Assembly (NCBI GenBank): GCA_964417925.1
Contig: CAYQJV010000002.1
Span: 20,952 to 84,951 of the forward strand
DNA length: 64,000 nucleotides
Direction of reading: 5' to 3'
From: an uncultured bacterium
GTDB lineage: Bacteria; Hydrothermota; Tepidihabitantia; B3-TA06; CAYQJV01
Shown: positions 4,648 through 30,708 of the stretch, piece after piece
Layout of the letters: the number at the start of each line of letters is the position of its first letter
Numbering within the stretch: position 1 is the first letter of the stretch
The notes under the pieces: model-generated
The model's database searches: none
Seen by the model: the letters and a program-made list of their open reading frames with translations, nothing else
What the model was told of the DNA's origin: nothing
Position numbers and translations under genes: made by a program

Positions 4648-5088
4648 ATGAGAAAATCTTTATTAATGCTTTTCATATTCCTGGGAACAGGAATTTTCTG
4701 TGTTCCCAGAAAGACTACCAAAGTGGTTGTCCCTGAAAAGGAATATACTCTTTATGAGATAGAAGAAGGAGAAAAGAAAGATACACTTGTCACCCGGGAA
4801 ATCACACCAGAAGAGACCATCAAAACACCTCCAAAAACTACACTTGGATACAGAGTTCAAATTTTCGCCTCTGCTACCCAAGAGGGAGCAGAAAGAGTTG
4901 CAGCAGAGGCAAGGTTTAAATTTACAGAACCTGTGTATGTTGAATATGAACCTCATCCCTTTGCTCCTTATAAGGTGAGAGTTGGGGATTTCCTTAACAA
5001 GTCAGATGCAGAGGTTTTAAGAAATCGTGCAAGGATGATGGGGTATTCAGATGCTTGGATAGTACAGACAGAAGTGAATGTACCGTGA
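4648..5088 (+). CDS. SPOR-domain lipoprotein
   Basis: Lipobox-like GIFC; GYRVQIFA and YKVRVGDF..GYSDAWIV SPOR pattern. Confidence 0.85.
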   Translation: MRKSLLMLFIFLGTGIFCVPRKTTKVVVPEKEYTLYEIEEGEKKDTLVTREITPEETIKTPPKTTLGYRVQIFASATQEGAERVAAEARFKFTEPVYVEYEPHPFAPYKVRVGDFLNKSDAEVLRNRARMMGYSDAWIVQTEVNVP

Positions 5089-5678
5089 ATAAAATAATTA
5101 TTGCTACAGGCAATCTTCATAAGCTTGACGAATACCGAAAATTACTTTATAATTATAAAGTAATAACTCCTTTGGAGGAGGGAATTATTTACAAAGGAGT
5201 TGAGGAAGGTGATGATTATAAAACGAATGCTGAGAAGAAAGTAGATGCTGTGCTTCAGCAAAAGAAGAATATATGGATATTGGGAGAAGATTCTGGATTA
5301 GAGGTGGATGCATTAAAGGGGAAACCTGGAACGAGATCTGCGAGGTTTGTAGGCAGTGATAAAGAGAACAGAGAAAAAATATTAGAGTTGATGACACAAA
5401 TTCCATGGTTTAAAAGGACTGCAAGATTCAGATGTGTGATAGTGTTATGGGATGGCAGAGAGAAACATATCTTTGAAGATACATGCGAGGGTTTAATTGG
5501 GGTGGAGGAAAAAGGAGAAAAAGGTTTTGGATATGATCCAATATTTATTCCTTGGGGATTTTCAAAGACTTTTGCAGAATTGGGAGAAAGGATAAAGAAC
5601 AAGATAAGTCACAGAGCTAAGGCTGTAAAAAAGTTAAAGGAATTTTTAGAAAGTCGGGGAGTAGCGCAGCCCGGATAG
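5085..5678 (+). CDS. rdgB: Non-canonical purine NTP pyrophosphatase (Ham1 family)
   Basis: ATGNLHKL, EDSGLEVDAL.G.PG, GFGYDPIF, KNKISHRAKA. GTG start at 5085 overlaps the upstream TGA. Stop lies inside tRNA-Pro. Confidence 0.93.
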   Translation: MNKIIIATGNLHKLDEYRKLLYNYKVITPLEEGIIYKGVEEGDDYKTNAEKKVDAVLQQKKNIWILGEDSGLEVDALKGKPGTRSARFVGSDKENREKILELMTQIPWFKRTARFRCVIVLWDGREKHIFEDTCEGLIGVEEKGEKGFGYDPIFIPWGFSKTFAELGERIKNKISHRAKAVKKLKEFLESRGVAQPG

Positions 5679-5729
5679 CGCACCTGCCTTGGGAGCAGGG
5701 GGTCGGTGGTTCAAATCCACTCTCCCCGA
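5655..5729 (+). tRNA. tRNA-Pro(TGG)
   Basis: Acceptor CGGGGAG/CTCCCCG, anticodon stem CCTGC-CTTGGGA-GCAGG, T-loop GGTTCAAATCC; no CCA encoded. Confidence 0.95.
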
Positions 5730-5750: not shown

Positions 5751-9321
<3,571 letters not shown>

Positions 9322-21823: not shown

Positions 21824-24352
21824 TCAGCGTATTATTATGACCTTTTGGTGTTTTATTTTTCCTTTCTCTTTTGCAAAAATAAAGTAAACTCCAGGAGAGA
21901 GTGTTTTTATCCTTTCATTAGTATATTTTGCCACCAATCTTCCTGTAACATCATAAATTTTCATTTCTGTGTTTTTTGTGTTTTTAACTCTTGTTAGTCT
22001 TTCTTTTATTCCAAGATTCCGATATCCAAAAAACATTAAAATTCTTTTCATTATCTCTTTTCTTTGGATAAATCTTTTTGGATTACCTCCTATGCCTTCA
22101 AATGGAAAAGCAAAATACACGAGTTTATAAGTACCATCGTAGGTGAGCCCTGCAACACCTCCTGTTTTGTAGTAAAAACACGCCGAAGCATCAATTGGTT
22201 TTATTACATCCTTTGAAGAGGAATACTTTGGCGATATCGCTATTGTATCATTTTTACTTTTTCCCACAGGATCTCCATCCCGTCCTATAAGGAATATCTC
22301 TTTTAAACTATCCTTTATACATTGTGCATGAAGATATACCCTGTAAAAATCAGTATTCCCTATATCCTCTCCTATATTTTCCCCTGTAATGAAAAGTTTC
22401 CCTCCATTATCAAGAAAACTTTTAAGCAACTCAATTTCTTTAAAAGAAAGGGTTGAATGATTTTGTCCTGTTATCCATATGATACAGGAATCTCTGTTAT
22501 TCATTTTTTCTATAATGGAAATAGCTTTTTCAGAGTTATGTATTTCATAGGGAACATTGAGTTCATCAAGCACTTTTGTATAAAAACTTTCTATTTCTTC
22601 ATTATCTATATCTTTAACGATCATTAATCCAGGCCACCCTGAAATTATCTTTATAGTGTCTTTCTGCGTAAATCCTGTGGAGCTTTCTTTAAGTAAGAAT
22701 ATAAGTTTTGAGGTATTAAAACCTTGTTTTATACATTCTATTTTAAAACTTACGGTTAATTCTTCTTCCTCACCAAAAGTATTTATATCTTTTTCTCCTT
22801 CCTCTACTTTAATAGCATTATCGCTAAAAAGATATACCTTAACATTTTCTCCTTTTCCCCAACGATTTTTTATTTTTATAAAAACATTTCCTACTTCTCT
22901 GTATTCAATTCTTTGATTACCATCAGCATCTTGGATAGAATATTCAACAATTTCAAAATAAGGAAAAGTCCTTCCCACATCTATATCACATCTTATAATG
23001 CTGTCTTCATTGTTGATATTAAATATTCCTATCTTTGTATCTTTTTCATAATAATCCCTTGTGGTTGGATAAGGGGTATATCCGTATATATAGTTTCTTT
23101 TTCTTTCTCCTGGAAACGGATCATACTCATCGCCTGAGTTGATGTTTCTTTCCAGCTCAAATTCACCATCAGCCTGTTCAATAGCTACGAGGTAATGCAT
23201 TGTTCCAGGAGAATTTTCTTCAGGAATGTACTGATTATTATTGTTAGGCATTTCCTCATCTATATGGTATACCAGCAATCCTTCTCCTGGTAAATAAGAG
23301 TCAAATCCTTCTTTTTTTCTATATTCTACTAAAAAATACTCTGGATTTTCCTCTCCATTCGTCCATAATTTGTATACCACAGGATTCTCTTCTACAGGAG
23401 GTATTTTAACATCTATGGCATTTTCTTTTATTACCACCGGTTCAATCCATCCAAGCTTATATTTGCACCATGCATCAAAATGAGCAGGAGATGATCCAAG
23501 TTTTCCATTCCATGAGCCTGCTGCCATTAAACTCCATTTACCTACTCCCTGAGAATCATATCCGTAGTCGTATAAATCAGGAAGTCCTAAGATATGCCCA
23601 AATTCATGACAAAATACCCCGATGTCAATTAATTTTCCACTGCAGTGTTCCTCAGGCTGTATGGAATATGGACCTATTCTTATATACCCTCCATTTGCAG
23701 ATGGGTCGTTGGTAGTATGGTTTACCCATGACATGTGAGACCATATCTTACCACAACCTCCTTCCTCATATCCTGGACCTGCGTGTACAATATATACTGC
23801 ATCCACGATTCCATCATCATCTCCTGAATTTGGAATTCCGTCAGGACCATCATTATCAAACTCCCCAAAATCCACTTCATTATCTATTTTTGATATTGCA
23901 TCTATGACGAGCTCTGCAGAATGCAAAAATCCATAGTATTCTGAATAGTATTCATAACTTTTATCCATTCTTAACCATTTTCTTCCTGATTCAGGGGGTG
24001 GATAAACTTTTCCTGAAAATTTAAATATCCTGTAGGAATTTTCATTGTAAAAATCCTTCATACTTCCACCAGGATATATGCCTTCTGAAAATAAAAGTGA
24101 ATCATAAGATATAGGAGGATGATTTATTGTATCTGCTGGATTGTCATCAAAATCTACAAGAATTGCAATCCCTGATCCTGAGACCTTTCTTGTTAAGGTG
24201 GTTGTGAGTTGTGTTTGGGGTAGAACATCTATTCCATATTTTTCTTTTGCAAAAAGATAATCCTTTACTATTTTTTCTAATCTGCCTTCCTTTTTTAATT
24301 TCTCTACCCATTCAGGCTGAAGAGGCATACATATAATTAATAGGTACAGCAT
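21824..24352 (-). CDS. M6 (immune inhibitor A) family metalloprotease with short T9SS-like CTD
   Basis: IVHAGPG, FCHEFGHILGLPDLYD, WSLMAAGSW, GLLVYHID; CTD IYDVTGRLV...PGVYFI...QKVIIIR. Confidence 0.92.
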   Translation of the reverse strand: MLYLLIICMPLQPEWVEKLKKEGRLEKIVKDYLFAKEKYGIDVLPQTQLTTTLTRKVSGSGIAILVDFDDNPADTINHPPISYDSLLFSEGIYPGGSMKDFYNENSYRIFKFSGKVYPPPESGRKWLRMDKSYEYYSEYYGFLHSAELVIDAISKIDNEVDFGEFDNDGPDGIPNSGDDDGIVDAVYIVHAGPGYEEGGCGKIWSHMSWVNHTTNDPSANGGYIRIGPYSIQPEEHCSGKLIDIGVFCHEFGHILGLPDLYDYGYDSQGVGKWSLMAAGSWNGKLGSSPAHFDAWCKYKLGWIEPVVIKENAIDVKIPPVEENPVVYKLWTNGEENPEYFLVEYRKKEGFDSYLPGEGLLVYHIDEEMPNNNNQYIPEENSPGTMHYLVAIEQADGEFELERNINSGDEYDPFPGERKRNYIYGYTPYPTTRDYYEKDTKIGIFNINNEDSIIRCDIDVGRTFPYFEIVEYSIQDADGNQRIEYREVGNVFIKIKNRWGKGENVKVYLFSDNAIKVEEGEKDINTFGEEEELTVSFKIECIKQGFNTSKLIFLLKESSTGFTQKDTIKIISGWPGLMIVKDIDNEEIESFYTKVLDELNVPYEIHNSEKAISIIEKMNNRDSCIIWITGQNHSTLSFKEIELLKSFLDNGGKLFITGENIGEDIGNTDFYRVYLHAQCIKDSLKEIFLIGRDGDPVGKSKNDTIAISPKYSSSKDVIKPIDASACFYYKTGGVAGLTYDGTYKLVYFAFPFEGIGGNPKRFIQRKEIMKRILMFFGYRNLGIKERLTRVKNTKNTEMKIYDVTGRLVAKYTNERIKTLSPGVYFIFAKEKGKIKHQKVIIIR

Positions 24353-24385: not shown

Positions 24386-24516
24386 ATACCTATTTTCACT
24401 AATCCCAAAATATGCAGATACTGAATTAGGTATTTTAATCTAAAGAATAGAAAAAAAATACTTCATCTTTAAATAGGGAAACTATCTTAGTAAGTATTCA
24501 AATAAAGAAAAACATA

Positions 24517-24870
24517 TGGAGGCGGCGGGATTCGAACCCGCGTCCGGAGTGGTCCGGCATCGAGGACTACATGGTTAGTCGCTGTTTTTATTTAACCCAG
24601 AAGGCGCCCAGCGACAGGCTCCTTCTGAGCGAGCCTCCTTAAGGATCCACCCTGGGATGGAGGCAGTCCCAGAGTTTCACCCAGGTGAATATTCCCCGGA
24701 TTACTTCCCCCTGGGCAAGGAAGCAACCGAGGTGCTGCCTTTCTAATTAGGCAGCAAGAGCGTAGTTGTAGTCGGCAGTTGTTTTTTCTACCGTGGGATT
24801 TACGAGGTCACGGTAGACCCTCGCCATGCCCTCTTAGCCTTCTACACTCCGTCGAATCCACATCGCCCCC
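24517..24870 (-). ncRNA. ssrA: tmRNA; tag peptide (A)ADYNYALAA at 24776..24747
   Basis: 5' GGGGGCGATGTGGATTCGAC, 3' GGGTTCGAATCCCGCCGCCTCCA with G3-U70 alanine determinant; internal ORF GCC GAC TAC AAC TAC GCT CTT GCT GCC TAA. Confidence 0.97.
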
Positions 24871-24983: not shown

Positions 24984-25011
24984 TTGACTTTACATGATGA
25001 ATTGCTATAAT
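24984..25011 (+). promoter_or_regulatory. Sigma70 promoter TTGACT-16-TATAAT, leaderless start
   Basis: ATG at 25017 is 5 nt after the -10; no SD. Confidence 0.8.
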
Positions 25012-25016
25012 ATTGC

Positions 25017-25769
25017 ATGAAACTTTCAAAAGGTGTTGTTCTATGTGGTGGATTGGGCACAAGACTCTATCCTCTGACAAAAGTTACAAATAAACACTTG
25101 CTTCCTATCTATGATAAGCCAATGGTGTTCTATCCTTTGATAAAACTTGTTGAAGCAGGAATAAAGGATATTTTACTTGTTACCGGTGGAAATCATGCTG
25201 GAGAATTTTTGAGACTTTTAGGTTCAGGAAAAGAACTTGGTATAAAAAGATTGAGATATACTTACCAGGAAGGAGAGAAGGGAATTGCAGATGCTTTATC
25301 CTTAGCTGAGGATTTTGCAGAGGGAGAGCCTTTAGTTGTTATTCTTGGAGATAATATTTTTCAAAGTTCACTTACACCTTATGTGGAAAAGTATAGAAAT
25401 CAGAAGAAAGGAGCAATGATTCTTTTAAAAGAAGTGCCTGATGCTTATAGATTTGGAGTAGCTGAGATAAGAAATGGAAAAGTGGTAAGAATAATTGAGA
25501 AGCCTAAAAATCCTCCATCAAATCTTGCAGTCACTGGAATATATTTCTATGACAATAAAGTTTTTTCCTTTATAAAAAAACTCACGCCTTCTGAAAGAGG
25601 AGAGTTGGAAATAACCGATGTTAACAATATGTATATAGAGCTTGGGGAATTGGAATACGATATCTTAAAAGGATGGTGGACAGATGCAGGAACCTTTGAA
25701 TCTTATTATAGGGCCATAACCCTTGTTAGAGAGGAAAGGTTGAGGAATGGAAAGGTTGTTACTAATTGA
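25017..25769 (+). CDS. Sugar-1-phosphate nucleotidyltransferase (RmlA/SpsI-like, short form)
   Basis: GGLGTRLYPLTKVTNKHLLPIYDKPM, YQE..GIADAL, LGDNIF, EKP, SERGELEITD, WTDAGT. Confidence 0.92.
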   Translation: MKLSKGVVLCGGLGTRLYPLTKVTNKHLLPIYDKPMVFYPLIKLVEAGIKDILLVTGGNHAGEFLRLLGSGKELGIKRLRYTYQEGEKGIADALSLAEDFAEGEPLVVILGDNIFQSSLTPYVEKYRNQKKGAMILLKEVPDAYRFGVAEIRNGKVVRIIEKPKNPPSNLAVTGIYFYDNKVFSFIKKLTPSERGELEITDVNNMYIELGELEYDILKGWWTDAGTFESYYRAITLVREERLRNGKVVTN

Positions 25770-28194
25770 TGGTCATTCTCTTATTTACAGGTCTTACTAT
25801 GCTTTTATAAGAAATCCTTTAAGAGATCTCAAAGGTAGAAATACATCTGCAATATTTGGATTTGTAAATACTTTAAGAAAAATAGAAAACGAGTTTAAAC
25901 CAAGATACATGGGAGTTGTTTTTGATACAGGTAAACCTACATTTAGACATAAGGAGTATATTGCATATAAGATTCAAAGACCACAAACCCCAGATGACCT
26001 CAAATGGCAGGTACCGGTGATAAAAGATATCGCAGAAGCATGGGGAATAAGAACCGTAGAGGTAGAAGGATACGAAGCAGATGATGTGCTCGCCACCATC
26101 GCCAAAAAACTTGCATCTTCTGATTTTCAAGTGATAGTGGTTTCGGGAGATAAGGATTTAATGCAAATTATAGATGATAATATTTTCGTTTACGATTCGT
26201 ATCGGGATGTTATGTATACAAAGGATAAAGTAAAGGAAAAATTTGGAGTACCCCCTGAGAAGGTGGCAGATATTCTTGCACTTGAAGGAGATACAATAGA
26301 TAATGTACCGGGAGTTCCTGGAGTAGGAGAAAAAAGGGCAAGGGAGATTATTGAAAAATACGGAAGTGTAGAGAATGCGTGTAAAAAAGATGAGTTGTGT
26401 AAAAGGTATAAAGATGTTGCATTACTTTCAAAAGAACTTGTTAAATTAAAAACTGAAGTTCCAGTCGAGGTGAAAAAAGAAGATTTTTTAATTAGGAAAA
26501 AGAATACAGAACGTCTTGTAGCAATTTACAAAGATTTGAATTTTTCCTCTTTATTGAAAGATCTTATTAAAGAGAGGAGAATAAAGGTCAGCATAATTAA
26601 AGATATAAGCTCTGTTATTACAAATGATTTTTCTTTGTTATTTTTGGATAAAGGTGTTTTTGTTTCGGATGGGGAAAATACAGGTTTTATAGAGAAAAAC
26701 AGTCCGATCTTCAGAGAAGTTATGGAGATAGATAAGATAAAGTATGTTTTTAACTATAAGGAGATTCTCTCAAAAAATGAAGAGGCTAAAAATATAAAAG
26801 GTAAAATATTTGATATTAAAATAGCTGAGTGGGTTCTTGAACCTGATAAAAAAATATATGAACTTGATGATATGATGATTTATTATACTGGGTCAATTTC
26901 TAAAGAACCGGAAACGAGATGTGCAGGTATATACAGAATAGGAAAGATACAACAAGAAAAGATAGATGAACTTTCTCTATCTCACATATTCTACGATATA
27001 GAAATACCTCTTTCTCCTGTACTTCTTGAAATAGAAAGAAGGGGAGTTAAAATAGATATCAGCCATTTTAGAAAATTATCAGTAAAATTTTCTGGATTTC
27101 TTATAGAACTTGAAAAAAAGATACATGAGCTTGCAGGAATAAGATTTAATGTCAATTCTCCCAAGCAATTGGCAGATGTGTTGTTCAATAGGTTAAAAAT
27201 TCCTCCTAAGAAGAGGACAAAAACAGGCTACTCCACAGATATTGAGGTACTGGAAGAACTTGCAGAGGAATATGAAATTGCAAAAAAGATACTTGAATAC
27301 AGACAATTTGCAAAGATAAAGAGTACCTATCTTGATCCTCTTGTAGAATATGCAGATAGTAATTCAAGGATACATACCACTTTTGACCAAACAGGAACAG
27401 CTACTGGCAGACTTTCAACAAAAAATCCAAATTTGCAAAACATTCCCATAAAAGGTGAATGGGGAAGGGATGTTAGAAGAGGTTTTATTGCAGAAGAAGG
27501 ATTTATGCTTATATCAGCGGATTATTCTCAGATAGAACTAAGAATTCTTGCTCACATTACAGATGATGATGCATTGAAAGAGATATTCTTTTTGGGAAGA
27601 GATATACATACTGAAACTGCTGCGAAAATTCTTGGTAAGAAACATGAAGATGTAACCAGGGAAGATAGAAGAGTTGCAAAAATGGTTAATTATGGAATTA
27701 TCTATGGACTCAGTGAACACGGACTTGCCACAGGCCTTAAAATTTCTCATCATGAGGCAAGGGAGTTTATAGAGAGATACCTTTCCTTTTTCCCGAAAGT
27801 AAAAGAATGGAGGGAAAAAGTGGTTGAGGAGGCCAAAGAGAGGGGATTTACCCAAACAATATTTGGTAGAATAAGAAAGATTCCTGGACTTTATTCAAGA
27901 AACAGAAGTATACAAGAAGCAGCAAAAAGAGCAGCAATAAATATGCCAGTTCAAGGCTCTGCTGCAGATATCATTAAAAAAGCCATGATTGAGATAGAAA
28001 GGATATTGAAAGAAAGAAAGTTTAAAGGGGGGCTTGTTTTGCAGATTCATGACGAACTTCTACTTGAAATAGAAGAAGAGAGAGTTGAAGAAGCAAAGCA
28101 GATAGTAAAGGATACAATGGAGAATGTGGTTAAATTGAGAGTTCCTCTTGAAGTAGATATTGCCTGTGGAAGAAATTGGATGGAGGCACACTGA
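25747..28194 (+). CDS. polA: DNA polymerase I (3'-5' exonuclease domain reduced)
   Basis: LIDGHSLIYRSY, EADDV, GDTIDNVPGVPGVG, TATGRLST.NPNLQNIP, ADYSQIELR, AKMVNYGIIYG, LQIHDEL. Confidence 0.97.
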   Translation: MERLLLIDGHSLIYRSYYAFIRNPLRDLKGRNTSAIFGFVNTLRKIENEFKPRYMGVVFDTGKPTFRHKEYIAYKIQRPQTPDDLKWQVPVIKDIAEAWGIRTVEVEGYEADDVLATIAKKLASSDFQVIVVSGDKDLMQIIDDNIFVYDSYRDVMYTKDKVKEKFGVPPEKVADILALEGDTIDNVPGVPGVGEKRAREIIEKYGSVENACKKDELCKRYKDVALLSKELVKLKTEVPVEVKKEDFLIRKKNTERLVAIYKDLNFSSLLKDLIKERRIKVSIIKDISSVITNDFSLLFLDKGVFVSDGENTGFIEKNSPIFREVMEIDKIKYVFNYKEILSKNEEAKNIKGKIFDIKIAEWVLEPDKKIYELDDMMIYYTGSISKEPETRCAGIYRIGKIQQEKIDELSLSHIFYDIEIPLSPVLLEIERRGVKIDISHFRKLSVKFSGFLIELEKKIHELAGIRFNVNSPKQLADVLFNRLKIPPKKRTKTGYSTDIEVLEELAEEYEIAKKILEYRQFAKIKSTYLDPLVEYADSNSRIHTTFDQTGTATGRLSTKNPNLQNIPIKGEWGRDVRRGFIAEEGFMLISADYSQIELRILAHITDDDALKEIFFLGRDIHTETAAKILGKKHEDVTREDRRVAKMVNYGIIYGLSEHGLATGLKISHHEAREFIERYLSFFPKVKEWREKVVEEAKERGFTQTIFGRIRKIPGLYSRNRSIQEAAKRAAINMPVQGSAADIIKKAMIEIERILKERKFKGGLVLQIHDELLLEIEEERVEEAKQIVKDTMENVVKLRVPLEVDIACGRNWMEAH

Positions 28195-28216
28195 AGGTAT
28201 GAAAAAGGAGGGTGAA

Positions 28217-28990
28217 ATGGATGAAAAAAGATATCCAAGATTAACTGTAGATGCAATAATAGAGTATAAAGGTGGAATTGTATTAGTAAGAAGGAAAAAC
28301 CCTCCCCATGGATGGGCGTTGCCAGGAGGATTTGTAGAGTACGGAGAGACGGTAGAACAAGCCGTGTTAAGGGAAGCAGAGGAAGAAACAGGATTAAAAA
28401 TTAAGGAGATAAAACAGTTCAGAGTATATTCTGATCCGAATAGGGATCCCAGGGGGCATACGGTGACAGTGGTGTTCGTTGGAAGTGGAGAGGGGGAGCT
28501 TAAAGCCAGTACCGATGCAGAAGATGTAAAAGTTTTTAAGAGAAATGAATTACCTCCTGATATTGTTTTTGACCACAGAAAGATTCTTGAAGATTATTTT
28601 GGAGAAGAGTATACTGAAGAACATGCAAAAAAAGGATTGGATGAGCCGTTACCTCTGATTAAGTGTTTTCCAAACCAGTTTAGAGAAATAGATTATAAAA
28701 TTACCATAGAGATACCTGAATATACTTCAGTATGTCCTAAAACAGGGTTTCCTGATTATGGTAAGATAACAATAGAGTATATTCCTGGTGAGTACTGTGT
28801 AGAACTCAAATCTATGAAGTTTTACATCTTGGGATACAGGAATCTTGGAATTTTTTACGAGAATGCAGTGAATAGGATTCTTGAAGATTTTGTGAAAGCA
28901 GTAAAACCTAAATGGGTGAAGATTAAAGGAGAGTTCAATCCAAGGGGAGGGATGTATACAAAGGTTGAACGTGAATACAGAAAAAAGTAA
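28217..28990 (+). CDS. queF: Nudix hydrolase-QueF (preQ0 reductase) fusion
   Basis: Complete Nudix box GGFVEYGETVEQAVLREAEEETGL, then QueF motifs PEYTSVCPKTGFPDYG, ELKSMK, IFYEN, RGG in one frame. AAGGAG SD before ATG 28217. Confidence 0.9.
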   Translation: MDEKRYPRLTVDAIIEYKGGIVLVRRKNPPHGWALPGGFVEYGETVEQAVLREAEEETGLKIKEIKQFRVYSDPNRDPRGHTVTVVFVGSGEGELKASTDAEDVKVFKRNELPPDIVFDHRKILEDYFGEEYTEEHAKKGLDEPLPLIKCFPNQFREIDYKITIEIPEYTSVCPKTGFPDYGKITIEYIPGEYCVELKSMKFYILGYRNLGIFYENAVNRILEDFVKAVKPKWVKIKGEFNPRGGMYTKVEREYRKK

Positions 28991-29663
28991 ACCGCTTACT
29001 CCACTGTTTTTTCTTTTTACATCTATCTTTATTTCTTGTCTTGTTGTTTCTAACATAATTGCTGTTAAACTGGTAAAGATATTTACTCTTGTGCTTCCCG
29101 CAGCAATAATTGTGTTTCCGATTACCTATATTTTTGGTGATGTTCTTACAGAAGTATATGGATATCGCAGAGCAAGGCTTGTAATATGGCTTGGATTTTT
29201 TTCTAATCTTTTGGTCGTAATTTTTATAAAACTTGGAGAGTGGCTTCCTTCTGCTCCTTTTTGGAAATTCCAAGACTCTTATACGAGAATTCTTGGATAC
29301 ACACCGAGGCTACTGGTTGCTTCCTTTTCTGCATATCTTATAGGAGAATTTTTGAATTCCTTTGTTCTTTCAAAAATAAAAATTTTAACAAAAGGGAGAT
29401 TCTTATGGATAAGAACCATAGGCTCCACTGTTGTGGGACAACTTGCAGATTCAACAGTGTTTATTACCATTGCGTTTGTGGGAGAAGTACAGTTACCAGT
29501 TCTTTTTAGAATAATCGTAACTCAGTGGATGTTCAAAGTGGTATATGAAGCTATTGCGACTCCCTTTACCTACACAGTGGTTGGTTTTCTGAAGAAAAAA
29601 GAAAAAATGGATGTATACGATTACAATACAAATTTCAATCCTCTAAGGATTTTTGAAATATGA
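28965..29663 (+). CDS. yhhQ: Queuosine precursor transporter (YhhQ/VUT family)
   Basis: SNIIAVK, FPITYIFGDVLTEVYGY, PRLLVASF.AYLIGEF, RTIGSTVVGQLADST. Confidence 0.92.
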   Translation: MNVNTEKSKPLTPLFFLFTSIFISCLVVSNIIAVKLVKIFTLVLPAAIIVFPITYIFGDVLTEVYGYRRARLVIWLGFFSNLLVVIFIKLGEWLPSAPFWKFQDSYTRILGYTPRLLVASFSAYLIGEFLNSFVLSKIKILTKGRFLWIRTIGSTVVGQLADSTVFITIAFVGEVQLPVLFRIIVTQWMFKVVYEAIATPFTYTVVGFLKKKEKMDVYDYNTNFNPLRIFEI

Positions 29664-29702: not shown

Positions 29703-30239
29703 ATGGATGAAGCAGAACTTATAAGGAGGATTAAAAATGGTGAAATTGAACTTTTCAATGGAATCGTTGAAAAATATAGACAAAAATTGTATTCAGTTGC
29801 GTGGAGAATTCTTAGAAGTAGAGAGGATGCAGAAGATGTATTACAGGAAGCCTTTATTAAAGCATTTAAAAGTATTAAAGATTTTAGAGAAGAATCTTCT
29901 CTTTCAACATGGTTATATAGGATTGTGGTGAACATGAGTATTGATTTTTCTACGCGCAAAAAAAGGTTTAAGATTGTAGAATTACACGAAAATATTGAAG
30001 CAATGGATAATCCTGAAAGGAGCTTTAAAATAAAAAATTTAAGAGAAGACATTAACAAAGCTATACTTTCACTTCCGGAGAGGCAAAGGGCAGTATTTAC
30101 CTTGAGATTTTATGAGCATATGAAATTTTCGGATATTTCTGAAATACTTGGAGTTTCAGAAGGAGCAGTTAAGGCGCAATATCATCATGCAATAAATAAA
30201 TTAAGAAGTGCTTTAAAGGGGTGGTTACATGAATTGTAA
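29703..30239 (+). CDS. ECF sigma factor
   Basis: DAEDVLQEAFIKA, STWLYRI, LPERQRAVF, EISEILGVSEGAVK. Confidence 0.93.
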   Translation: MDEAELIRRIKNGEIELFNGIVEKYRQKLYSVAWRILRSREDAEDVLQEAFIKAFKSIKDFREESSLSTWLYRIVVNMSIDFSTRKKRFKIVELHENIEAMDNPERSFKIKNLREDINKAILSLPERQRAVFTLRFYEHMKFSDISEILGVSEGAVKAQYHHAINKLRSALKGWLHEL

Positions 30240-30708
30240 GTATGTTAAAAAGAAATTAATAAATTTTATTGAAAATGAAATTTCTGCAGAGGAAAAGAAA
30301 GCAATAAGAGAACATCTTGACGAATGTAAAGAATGCAGAAAAGAATACTATGAAATTCTTGCTTTATTTGAACTGTTAGAAAAGGATGAAGTGGATATGC
30401 CTGAGAAAATTCTTGTTCCATTTGTAAAACAGAGAGAAAAGAAATGGTGGATTCCTGCTTTTGTTTCTGGGGTGATAGTAGCACTTGCAATTTTTTTCGT
30501 TATTATTACACAGTATTCAGGATATACTACTTCAAATTTTAAAAAAGATGAACTTTTAACGTATCTTGAGGAGATAGGGATTGGGGAAAAAGAAATAGAA
30601 GAAATGGAAAAATATACCGAAGGAGATGTATACGAGGAATTTTATGAAATTGTAAAGGATAAAGAGTTAATCGAGGAGTTTTTCAGCAAATTTAAAAAAG
30701 GAGGTTGA
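30229..30708 (+). CDS. Zinc-finger (HxxxCxxC) anti-sigma factor
   Basis: EHLDECKEC, single TM segment, directly after the ECF sigma. Confidence 0.85.
   Translation: MNCKYVKKKLINFIENEISAEEKKAIREHLDECKECRKEYYEILALFELLEKDEVDMPEKILVPFVKQREKKWWIPAFVSGVIVALAIFFVIITQYSGYTTSNFKKDELLTYLEEIGIGEKEIEEMEKYTEGDVYEEFYEIVKDKELIEEFFSKFKKGG

Follow-up and report, generated by a model that had tools for sequence, protein, structure and literature searches.

In Escherichia coli, salvage of the queuosine (Q) precursors preQ0 and preQ1 requires YhhQ (PMC5372724), and the family to which YhhQ belongs, COG1738, is associated with Q genes (PMC5372724; PMC11130926). Rosetta-stone fusions among Q salvage proteins, for instance of TGT with QPTR or with other transporters, have been used as clues to function (PMC11130926). 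The fusion described here is of another make. It lies in a 64,000-nucleotide stretch of the genome of an uncultured bacterium (GenBank assembly GCA_964417925.1, contig CAYQJV010000002.1, positions 20,952 to 84,951; hereafter the window), where a single gene joins a Nudix hydrolase domain to QueF, just ahead of yhhQ. For the source organism, the gene content considered throughout is that of the window. An earlier interpretation of these letters, referred to as the sequence-only reading, had proposed that the fusion and yhhQ, standing behind polA, form a new 7-deazaguanine nucleotide salvage or sanitising module, a proposal for which the present analysis found no support. What the locus looks like is an accidental join of adjacent genes and not a new 7-deazaguanine nucleotide pathway. 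The reading we prefer, with a probability of about 0.65, is that a lineage-specific, end-to-start fusion of neighbouring genes gave rise to a bifunctional protein with independent activities; we infer that independence from the family membership of the two halves.

One reading frame, two domains

The features of the fusion gene are as follows.

28217 to 28990, + strand: Nudix-QueF fusion open reading frame (ORF), 257 amino acids plus stop (Pfam/NCBIfam, independent contigs, sister species, AlphaFold2 (AF2) model)
28217 to 28600, + strand: Nudix domain, residues 1-128, ADP-ribose-pyrophosphatase-like, ending in the family C-terminal helix ...FDHRKILEDYF (Pfam NUDIX, 5e-26)
28328 to 28396, + strand: Nudix box G38-L60, GFVEYGETVEQAVLREAEEETGL, intact (translation read directly)
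28601 to 28609, + strand: linker G129-E130-E131, with neither a start nor a stop codon
28610 to 28990, + strand: unimodular (type I) QueF domain, residues 132-257 plus stop (TIGR03139, 4f8b)
28733 to 28756, + strand: QueF active-site motif CPKTGFPD, with Cys173 and Asp180 (alignment to 4f8b)
28802 to 28825, + strand: QueF NADPH-binding motif ELKSMKFY, residues 196-203 (direct reading; aligned to Bacillus subtilis VESKSLKLY)

The single ORF on the + strand ends at 28990 and opens at either 28160 or 28217. The ATG at 28217 was taken as the start because its Shine-Dalgarno sequence, AAGGAGG 6 nt upstream, is ideally spaced and because it aligns with the start of the sister-species protein described below. 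Pfam places NUDIX on residues 8-126 and QueF on residues 179-256 (2e-30), and these matches, TIGR03139 and the motifs bear out the claim of the sequence-only reading that one frame carries a Nudix domain and a unimodular QueF, both intact. Direct reading of the junction, F128-G-E-E-Y132 (TTT GGA GAA GAG TAT), likewise upholds its statement that the linker holds no in-frame start codon. The first alternative start past the junction in this frame, the TTG at 28637, was considered as a separate internal start for QueF and rejected, since it has no good ribosome-binding site; an internal promoter for a separate QueF was also rejected, the promoter-like matches of a consensus scan reaching only 9/12, which is chance level. 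An AF2 model built from a 30-sequence alignment has a mean predicted local distance difference test (pLDDT) score of 89.8 and shows two confident domains, for which the best structural matches in Foldseek are the Aquifex Nudix protein 2yyh and the B. subtilis QueF 4f8b.

An architecture as extremely rare as this one might be taken for a sequencing or assembly error, or for a frameshift or stop-loss pseudogene of very recent date. Such a reading merits virtually no credence. The junction, whose confirmation in reads the sequence-only reading had left open, is covered by Logan contigs of three runs (two samples, two studies) that agree with the window base for base over 28247-29219, with zero differences; the samples with this sequence are hydrothermal-vent metagenomes. 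Moreover, a sister species has the same fusion in the same rmlA-like/polA/fusion/yhhQ operon on at least 8 contigs, drawn from an ENA assembly, the NCBI metagenome-assembled genome GCA_964623485.1, a JGI metagenome and a Logan assembly. The sister protein is 80% identical to that of the window (76% for YhhQ), and its linker reads EKEE in place of GEE, an indel of 3 nt that stays in frame. For the proportion of nonsynonymous differences (pN) between the two species, the Nudix half gives 0.14 and the QueF half 0.10; that of synonymous differences (pS) is saturated at 0.70-0.80. Saturated pS together with low pN means an old fusion whose two halves both experience purifying selection. The catalytic motifs are also intact. 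Contigs, sister species, in-frame indel and pN/pS together refute an artefact, and the fusion is real and maintained.

The fusion is also very narrowly distributed. Among 5.8 billion proteins, only two clusters hold it, that of the window and that of the one sister species, and the other matches cover half of the query. An exhaustive HMMER search found no protein with Nudix plus QueF in the best 150 of 1.84 billion cluster representatives, the two-stretch matches scanned there being tandem Nudix or tandem QueF. The 80 best-scoring GTDB species-genome loci, all of them standalone Nudix genes, add no further case; lists ranked by score, as these are, could miss a QueF joined to some distant Nudix family. 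The searches thus limit the fusion to two sister species, both of them uncultured bacteria of hydrothermal vents. The literature searched held no description of a Nudix-QueF fusion, in agreement with the sequence-only reading, which knew of none. What is new is the domain architecture, found undescribed; the salvage module and the Nudix clade are of kinds already known.

Origin of the join and character of its halves

The nearest genes without the fusion indicate how it arose. In the next-closest relatives by YhhQ (70-72% identity), queF is a standalone gene of 129-136 amino acids that overlaps the start of yhhQ; lpxB precedes queF in one lineage, truB in another, and no Nudix gene is present. 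For this reason the ancestral unit would have been a translationally coupled queF-yhhQ pair. The standalone QueF of GCA_054007035.1 is 80% identical to the QueF half of the window and has its own ATG. It starts M-GGEYTEEHAKKGL, and the fusion reads ...EDYF-GEEYTEEHAKKGL at the same place; in short form, M-GGEYTEEH in the standalone protein stands against F-GEEYTEEH in the fusion. Standalone Nudix relatives end a few residues past ...DYF. Our conclusion from these alignments is that the fusion probably swapped exactly the QueF initiator Met for the Nudix C-terminal helix. In the common ancestor of the two species, a small housekeeping Nudix gene would have stood downstream of polA, with the queF-yhhQ pair immediately after it; once the Nudix gene lost its stop codon and queF its ATG, the two frames would have become one. 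A second route to a separate-gene precursor, by way of polA, yielded nothing, unlike that by way of YhhQ: the closest polA relatives, in JGI metagenomes and at most 57% identical, have no nudix, queF or yhhQ downstream. Relatives with a separate start at the junction, and a fusion without wider company, were what the sequence-only reading itself had named as speaking against its module, and this is largely the picture obtained, with standalone queF genes that begin at an ATG without a Nudix domain and a fusion limited to two sister species.

From its family matches the QueF half is predicted to be an NADPH-dependent preQ0 reductase. With the preQ1 synthase equivalog TIGR03139 (residues 147-256), its score of 146.8 bits clears the cutoff of 86.9, and B. 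subtilis QueF (4f8b) matches it at 1.8e-26 in sequence and, in Foldseek, with a template modelling (TM) score of 0.72 normalised to the target. Cys173 and Asp180 align with Cys55 and Asp62 of the B. subtilis enzyme and are conserved throughout the standalone relatives as well as in the sister species; their roles, with the Cys forming the thioimide, we take from established QueF biochemistry. Measured against what we take to be the definition of the NADPH motif in the QueF literature, E(S/L)K(S/A)hK(L/Y)(Y/F/W), ELKSMKFY departs at position 7, with F instead of L/Y. In GIFYEN (28856-28861 = Y214-E215), the Glu is kept as E215, and Tyr Y214 takes the place of His96 in the His96-Glu97 pair of B. 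subtilis. Tyr occupies the His96 position in every close standalone relative aligned, and Y214 is, on this alignment, a trait of the clade and not a feature of the fusion. The same clade reads Ala where B. subtilis has its protective Cys99, and another Cys (C194, before ELKS) is conserved. Of the 54 positions with a conservation of 90% or more in its family, the fused QueF keeps 52 (the exceptions are L178F and L200M), and the fused Nudix domain keeps 54/54 of those conserved to the same degree in standalone members. On these counts, neither half gives any sign of altered specificity.

The Nudix half is best placed, by sequence, as a member of the COG1051 clade of ADP-ribose-pyrophosphatase-like proteins. 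Its Nudix box, GFVEYGETVEQAVLREAEEETGL, matches GX5EX7REUXEEXGU exactly and is intact in the sister species too. In NCBIfam the best match is to the Nudix part of NadM-Nudix models (58 bits, a domain-level match under the full-length cutoffs), followed by NAD diphosphatase, then by the ADP-ribose-responsive repressor NtrR and MutT. The MutT equivalog models are far under their cutoffs (TIGR00586, 32.4 bits against 97.9; NF008044, 31.3 against 148). Sequence matches in PDB put 2yyh first, followed by NadM-Nudix and NrtR. The family is a tight one, with members of about 140 amino acids (about 142 for the standalone homologues) that are about 60-67% identical across many phyla, among them WOR-3, Nitrospirota, Desulfobacterota-type lineages, Myxococcota, Gemmatimonadota and Spirochaetota.

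The company that this Nudix family keeps is informative in two respects. A census of its fusion partners, made over 68 multidomain representatives, gave NadM-type adenylyltransferase (8), Macro (5), AMMECR1 (4), ROK (2) and the NrtR DNA-binding domain (2, in more distant family members), followed by partners seen once each: argininosuccinate lyase, inositol monophosphatase, PanE, pyrroline-5-carboxylate (P5C) reductase, an FAD oxidoreductase, a low-molecular-weight phosphatase, MazG, a hexapeptide transferase and a phosphoribosyltransferase. Hfq and a nitroreductase were found as partners outside the census. NadM or Macro fusions occur in proteins 63-67% identical to the Nudix domain of the window, and the recurrent partners NadM, Macro and NrtR point to a family of the ADP-ribose type. 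The long tail of one-off partners, for its part, indicates a family that joins readily to any adjacent gene.

The gene contexts of standalone members vary just as widely (gyrA-deaminase-nudix; clpB-nudix; murA-nudix-SurA-like-trpF; AP-endonuclease-2-fold gene-nudix), are mutually unrelated and show no link to Q genes; in an automatic census of standalone loci, no neighbour was dominant, although the gene caller was crude and many small Nudix genes were lost. In 5 of the 80 GTDB loci, all from Nitrospirota, queF lies 1.3-2.9 kb from the Nudix gene and convergent to it, with SurA-like, trpF and GGDEF genes between them; as a functional linkage this proximity was rejected and put down to lineage synteny. 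That the Nudix domain might be a plain ADP-ribose pyrophosphatase was a doubt already raised in the sequence-only reading, and it has proved largely justified, given a ubiquitous family, NadM, Macro and NrtR as partners and no Q context elsewhere.

A second neighbour does recur. The standalone Nudix gene lies directly upstream of polA in 8/80 GTDB loci, annotated as Deltaproteobacteria, Thermodesulfobacteriota or Syntrophaceae, with nudix at about 8001-8400 and polA from about 8400 in the retrieved stretches, and in the clearest of the 8 the Nudix stop overlaps the polA start (ATGA or TGATG). Nudix is convergent with polA in two metagenome loci. Counting the window lineage, where the order is reversed (polA, then nudix; 28192-28219), the link is seen in three arrangements. 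Nothing relevant to it turned up in the literature searched.

Several observations weigh against independent activities in an accidental join. The fusion has been kept past synonymous saturation and so is at least tolerated; it could even confer an advantage. Two cooperating activities would be just as likely to leave both halves under purifying selection. We know of no measured substrate for the tight Nudix family, whose nearest structure, 2yyh, is itself uncharacterised. Like QueF, several of the one-off partners are reductases that depend on NAD(P)H, among them the nitroreductase, PanE/ApbA and P5C reductase. Finally, the association of Nudix with polA, translationally coupled in loci of another phylum, recurs and hints at a function connected with DNA synthesis.

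The reductase partners bear on a proposal in which the Nudix half is coupled to QueF and clears ADP-ribose, 2'-phospho-ADP-ribose or damaged NADP(H) that gathers near, or competes at, the NADPH site. Such clearance would be useful at vent heat and would keep the slow, two-NADPH reaction of QueF going. Of the functions offered by the sequence-only reading, turnover of NADPH or ADP-ribose for QueF is the one of this kind, and it may still hold. The placement of the Nudix domain in an ADP-ribose-type clade, the hydrothermal-vent habitat and the long retention of the fusion all suit the proposal, as does the breakdown of NAD by heat to nicotinamide and ADP-ribose (PMC10663502). However, the fusion occurs in two sister species only, and the closest relatives run QueF without Nudix. 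The reductase partners are singletons amid many unrelated singletons, and NAD(P)H enzymes are so common in proteomes that chance would be expected to supply some of this kind. Nor does any conserved position depart from the standalone families. We know of no documentation that ADP-ribose inhibits QueF. Taken as a whole we consider the proposal unlikely, and the broader statement that the Nudix half serves as a built-in cofactor-hygiene module of an NADPH enzyme in a thermophile, and is not a passenger, has a small chance of being right; a variant in which it acts on 7-deazaguanine nucleotides is less likely again. If the proposal were true, the nitroreductase, PanE and P5C reductase fusions would be further cases of the same principle.

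The polA association bears on a different proposal, of a MutT-like sanitiser of the (d)NTP pool that works functionally with polA, the join to QueF still being accidental. In its favour, polA immediately precedes the fusion in the window, and the polA stop of the sister species overlaps the fusion start by 1 nt; the coupled and convergent loci described above fit as well, and the depositors of 2yyh labelled it an 8-oxo-dGTPase domain. Against these stand the low MutT scores and the identity of the recurrent partners, which are NAD/ADP-ribose enzymes and not DNA enzymes. polA is not a neighbour of the closest standalone Nudix relatives, no Nudix follows it in its own closest relatives, and the 8 GTDB loci may be a single ancestral event. 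The window also has a gene for a dedicated non-canonical purine NTPase, RdgB (5055-5678). A sanitiser of this sort is improbable on balance.

The operon and the salvage route

The genes around the fusion, and the Q genes elsewhere in the window, are as follows.

5055 to 5678: RdgB/HAM1 non-canonical purine NTP pyrophosphatase gene (TIGR00042, 168.6 bits against a cutoff of 145)
5751 to 6749, + strand: queA (NF001140, 366 bits against a cutoff of 324)
6746 to 7846, + strand: tgt, tRNA-guanine(34) transglycosylase (TIGR00430, 492.5 bits against a cutoff of 306.75)
24514 to 24870, - strand: transfer-messenger RNA (tmRNA) gene (Rfam RF00023, 208 bits)
24984 to 25011, + strand: promoter-like site, TTGACT, 16 nt, TG-TATAAT, 11/12 matches (consensus scan only)
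25017 to 25769, + strand: rmlA-like sugar-1-phosphate nucleotidylyltransferase gene, 250 amino acids (Pfam NTP_transferase, 1.3e-58)
25747 to 28194, + strand: polA, DNA polymerase I, 815 amino acids (Pfam DNA_pol_A, 1.5e-151; 5_3_exonuc_N, 3.8e-57)
28965 to 29663, + strand: yhhQ (COG1738/QPTR), start at TTG 28965 or GTG 28971 (Vut_1, TIGR00697)
29703 to 30239: extracytoplasmic function (ECF) sigma factor gene, 40 nt after yhhQ
30229 to 30708: possible anti-sigma ORF, putative, overlapping the ECF sigma gene

Four genes make up the operon, in the order rmlA-like/polA/Nudix-QueF/yhhQ, and the promoter-like site at 24984-25011 is its probable start. ORFs together with Pfam and NCBIfam matches confirm the yhhQ overlap and the upstream rmlA-like and polA genes of the sequence-only reading. 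The rmlA-like gene scores under all RmlA equivalog cutoffs (243.5 bits against 360.65), and its sugar specificity is uncertain because of these scores and its length of 250 amino acids. It overlaps polA by 23 nt, a pairing that is conserved in the sister species, and a spacer of 22 nt separates polA from the fusion. YhhQ is well supported (Pfam Vut_1, 3.6e-53; TIGR00697, 134.3 bits against a cutoff of 50.95), and its gene shares 20-26 nt with the 3' end of the fusion; the queF-yhhQ overlap is conserved in relatives. The genome is AT-rich (34% GC) and compact, and overlaps between neighbouring genes are common in it.

Upstream, the tmRNA gene sits between an 842-amino-acid ORF (21824-24352, - strand) and the rmlA-like gene, and bounds the polA operon. 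Past yhhQ the synteny with the sister species ends; in the sister an opposite-strand PQQ-like beta-propeller gene comes next. In the Q-gene region the order is RdgB gene, tRNA gene (5655-5729), queA-tgt, so that a dedicated purine-NTP sanitiser adjoins Q genes. The window held no preQ1 riboswitch at Rfam gathering thresholds.

Both queA and tgt stand above their NCBIfam cutoffs where the sequence-only reading had put them, at 5751-7846, and its view of QueF, YhhQ, Tgt and QueA as a salvage route for Q precursors is sound. In such a route, YhhQ would import preQ0 or preQ1, the QueF half would reduce preQ0 to preQ1 with NADPH by way of a thioimide at Cys173, and Tgt would insert preQ1 into tRNA, where QueA would extend it. 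The Nudix half would meanwhile hydrolyse a housekeeping substrate of the nucleoside-diphosphate-X type, most probably ADP-ribose as judged from its family.

The make-up of the operon also bears on two functions that the sequence-only reading had offered for the Nudix half. By the first, it would hydrolyse (deoxy)nucleotides of preQ0, preQ1 or Q, for example from 7-deazaguanine-modified phage DNA, and the base would be channelled to QueF. The physical join of Nudix to QueF and the adjacency of polA favour this, and TubG, the Nudix enzyme of tubercidin biosynthesis, provides a precedent, having been assayed only on AMP as a stand-in for a 7-deazapurine nucleotide (PMC6112128). However, a Nudix reaction yields a nucleoside monophosphate and not a free base, and the four-gene operon, that of the sister included, holds no nucleosidase, phosphorylase, Qng1/QueK-type enzyme or phosphoribosyltransferase; the glycosidase needed to free the base is absent from it. 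The cargo of YhhQ consists of bases (PMC5372724). A private specificity is itself unlikely in a domain that is 60-67% identical to standalone proteins of other phyla with no Q context and that keeps the conserved positions, and the nearest queF-yhhQ modules work without a Nudix domain. The suggestion is thus unsupported, and we regard it as very unlikely.

By the second, the Nudix half would be a NudB-like pyrophosphatase of dihydroneopterin triphosphate (H2NTP) at the branch point of folate and Q synthesis. Its one attraction is the logic of a shared precursor, H2NTP being the precursor for both QueD and folate synthesis. Similarity lends it nothing, since no NudB model is among the 25 best of 28 NCBIfam matches (E up to 0.01), the remaining three being weaker than 1.4e-4. 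Moreover, QueF acts four steps past H2NTP, yhhQ in the operon points to salvage and not to de novo synthesis, and neither folE nor queD is found near the fusion. This function is hardly credible.

The fusion beside known systems

The closest described arrangement is the queF-yhhQ (COG1738/QPTR) module with tgt and queA. The window shares with it a unimodular QueF, a yhhQ gene that overlaps the QueF stop, and tgt and queA within the same stretch; it differs in a QueF without its own start codon, in the 128-residue Nudix domain at the N-terminus and in having no preQ1 riboswitch. The working part of the locus would thus be the known preQ0 salvage route of YhhQ, QueF, Tgt and QueA, and the finding as it stands matters little. 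It would matter more if the Nudix half proved to affect QueF, for this would be the first nucleotide-cleaning domain dedicated to protecting one NADPH enzyme. The Nudix family of about 140 amino acids is of interest in itself, being widespread, very conserved, biochemically uncharacterised and recurrent beside polA.

For the Nudix half, the closest solved structure is 2yyh of Aquifex aeolicus (127 bits, about 50% identity over the whole domain), with which it aligns in Foldseek at a TM score of 0.80-0.84 normalised to the target. This is a standalone protein of 139 amino acids from structural genomics and gives the fold, not the function. TubG is the only precedent in the literature searched for a Nudix enzyme encoded with 7-deazapurine enzymes (PMC6112128). 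Compared by description, it differs in belonging to a secondary-metabolite cluster with a phosphoribosyltransferase and in removing the phosphate of a nucleoside monophosphate, in an assay on AMP.

The Rosetta-stone fusions of Q salvage join proteins of the same pathway, whereas the Nudix family of the window is otherwise without a link to the Q pathway. The lesson for Rosetta-stone reasoning is one of caution: with a Nudix partner that fuses promiscuously, a lone, rare fusion carries little functional information. The contrast is sharpest with NadM-Nudix (NMN adenylyltransferase/ADP-ribose pyrophosphatase; PDB 2qjo, 2qjt) and Macro-Nudix, which have the same kind of Nudix domain. In those proteins the partner makes or uses NAD or ADP-ribose, and the join is metabolically logical and recurs in many lineages. 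The join to QueF is a single event in one lineage, itself poorly sampled; its only chemical link is the use of NADPH by QueF, and a chance arrangement of genes appears to be how the Nudix domain came to be attached.

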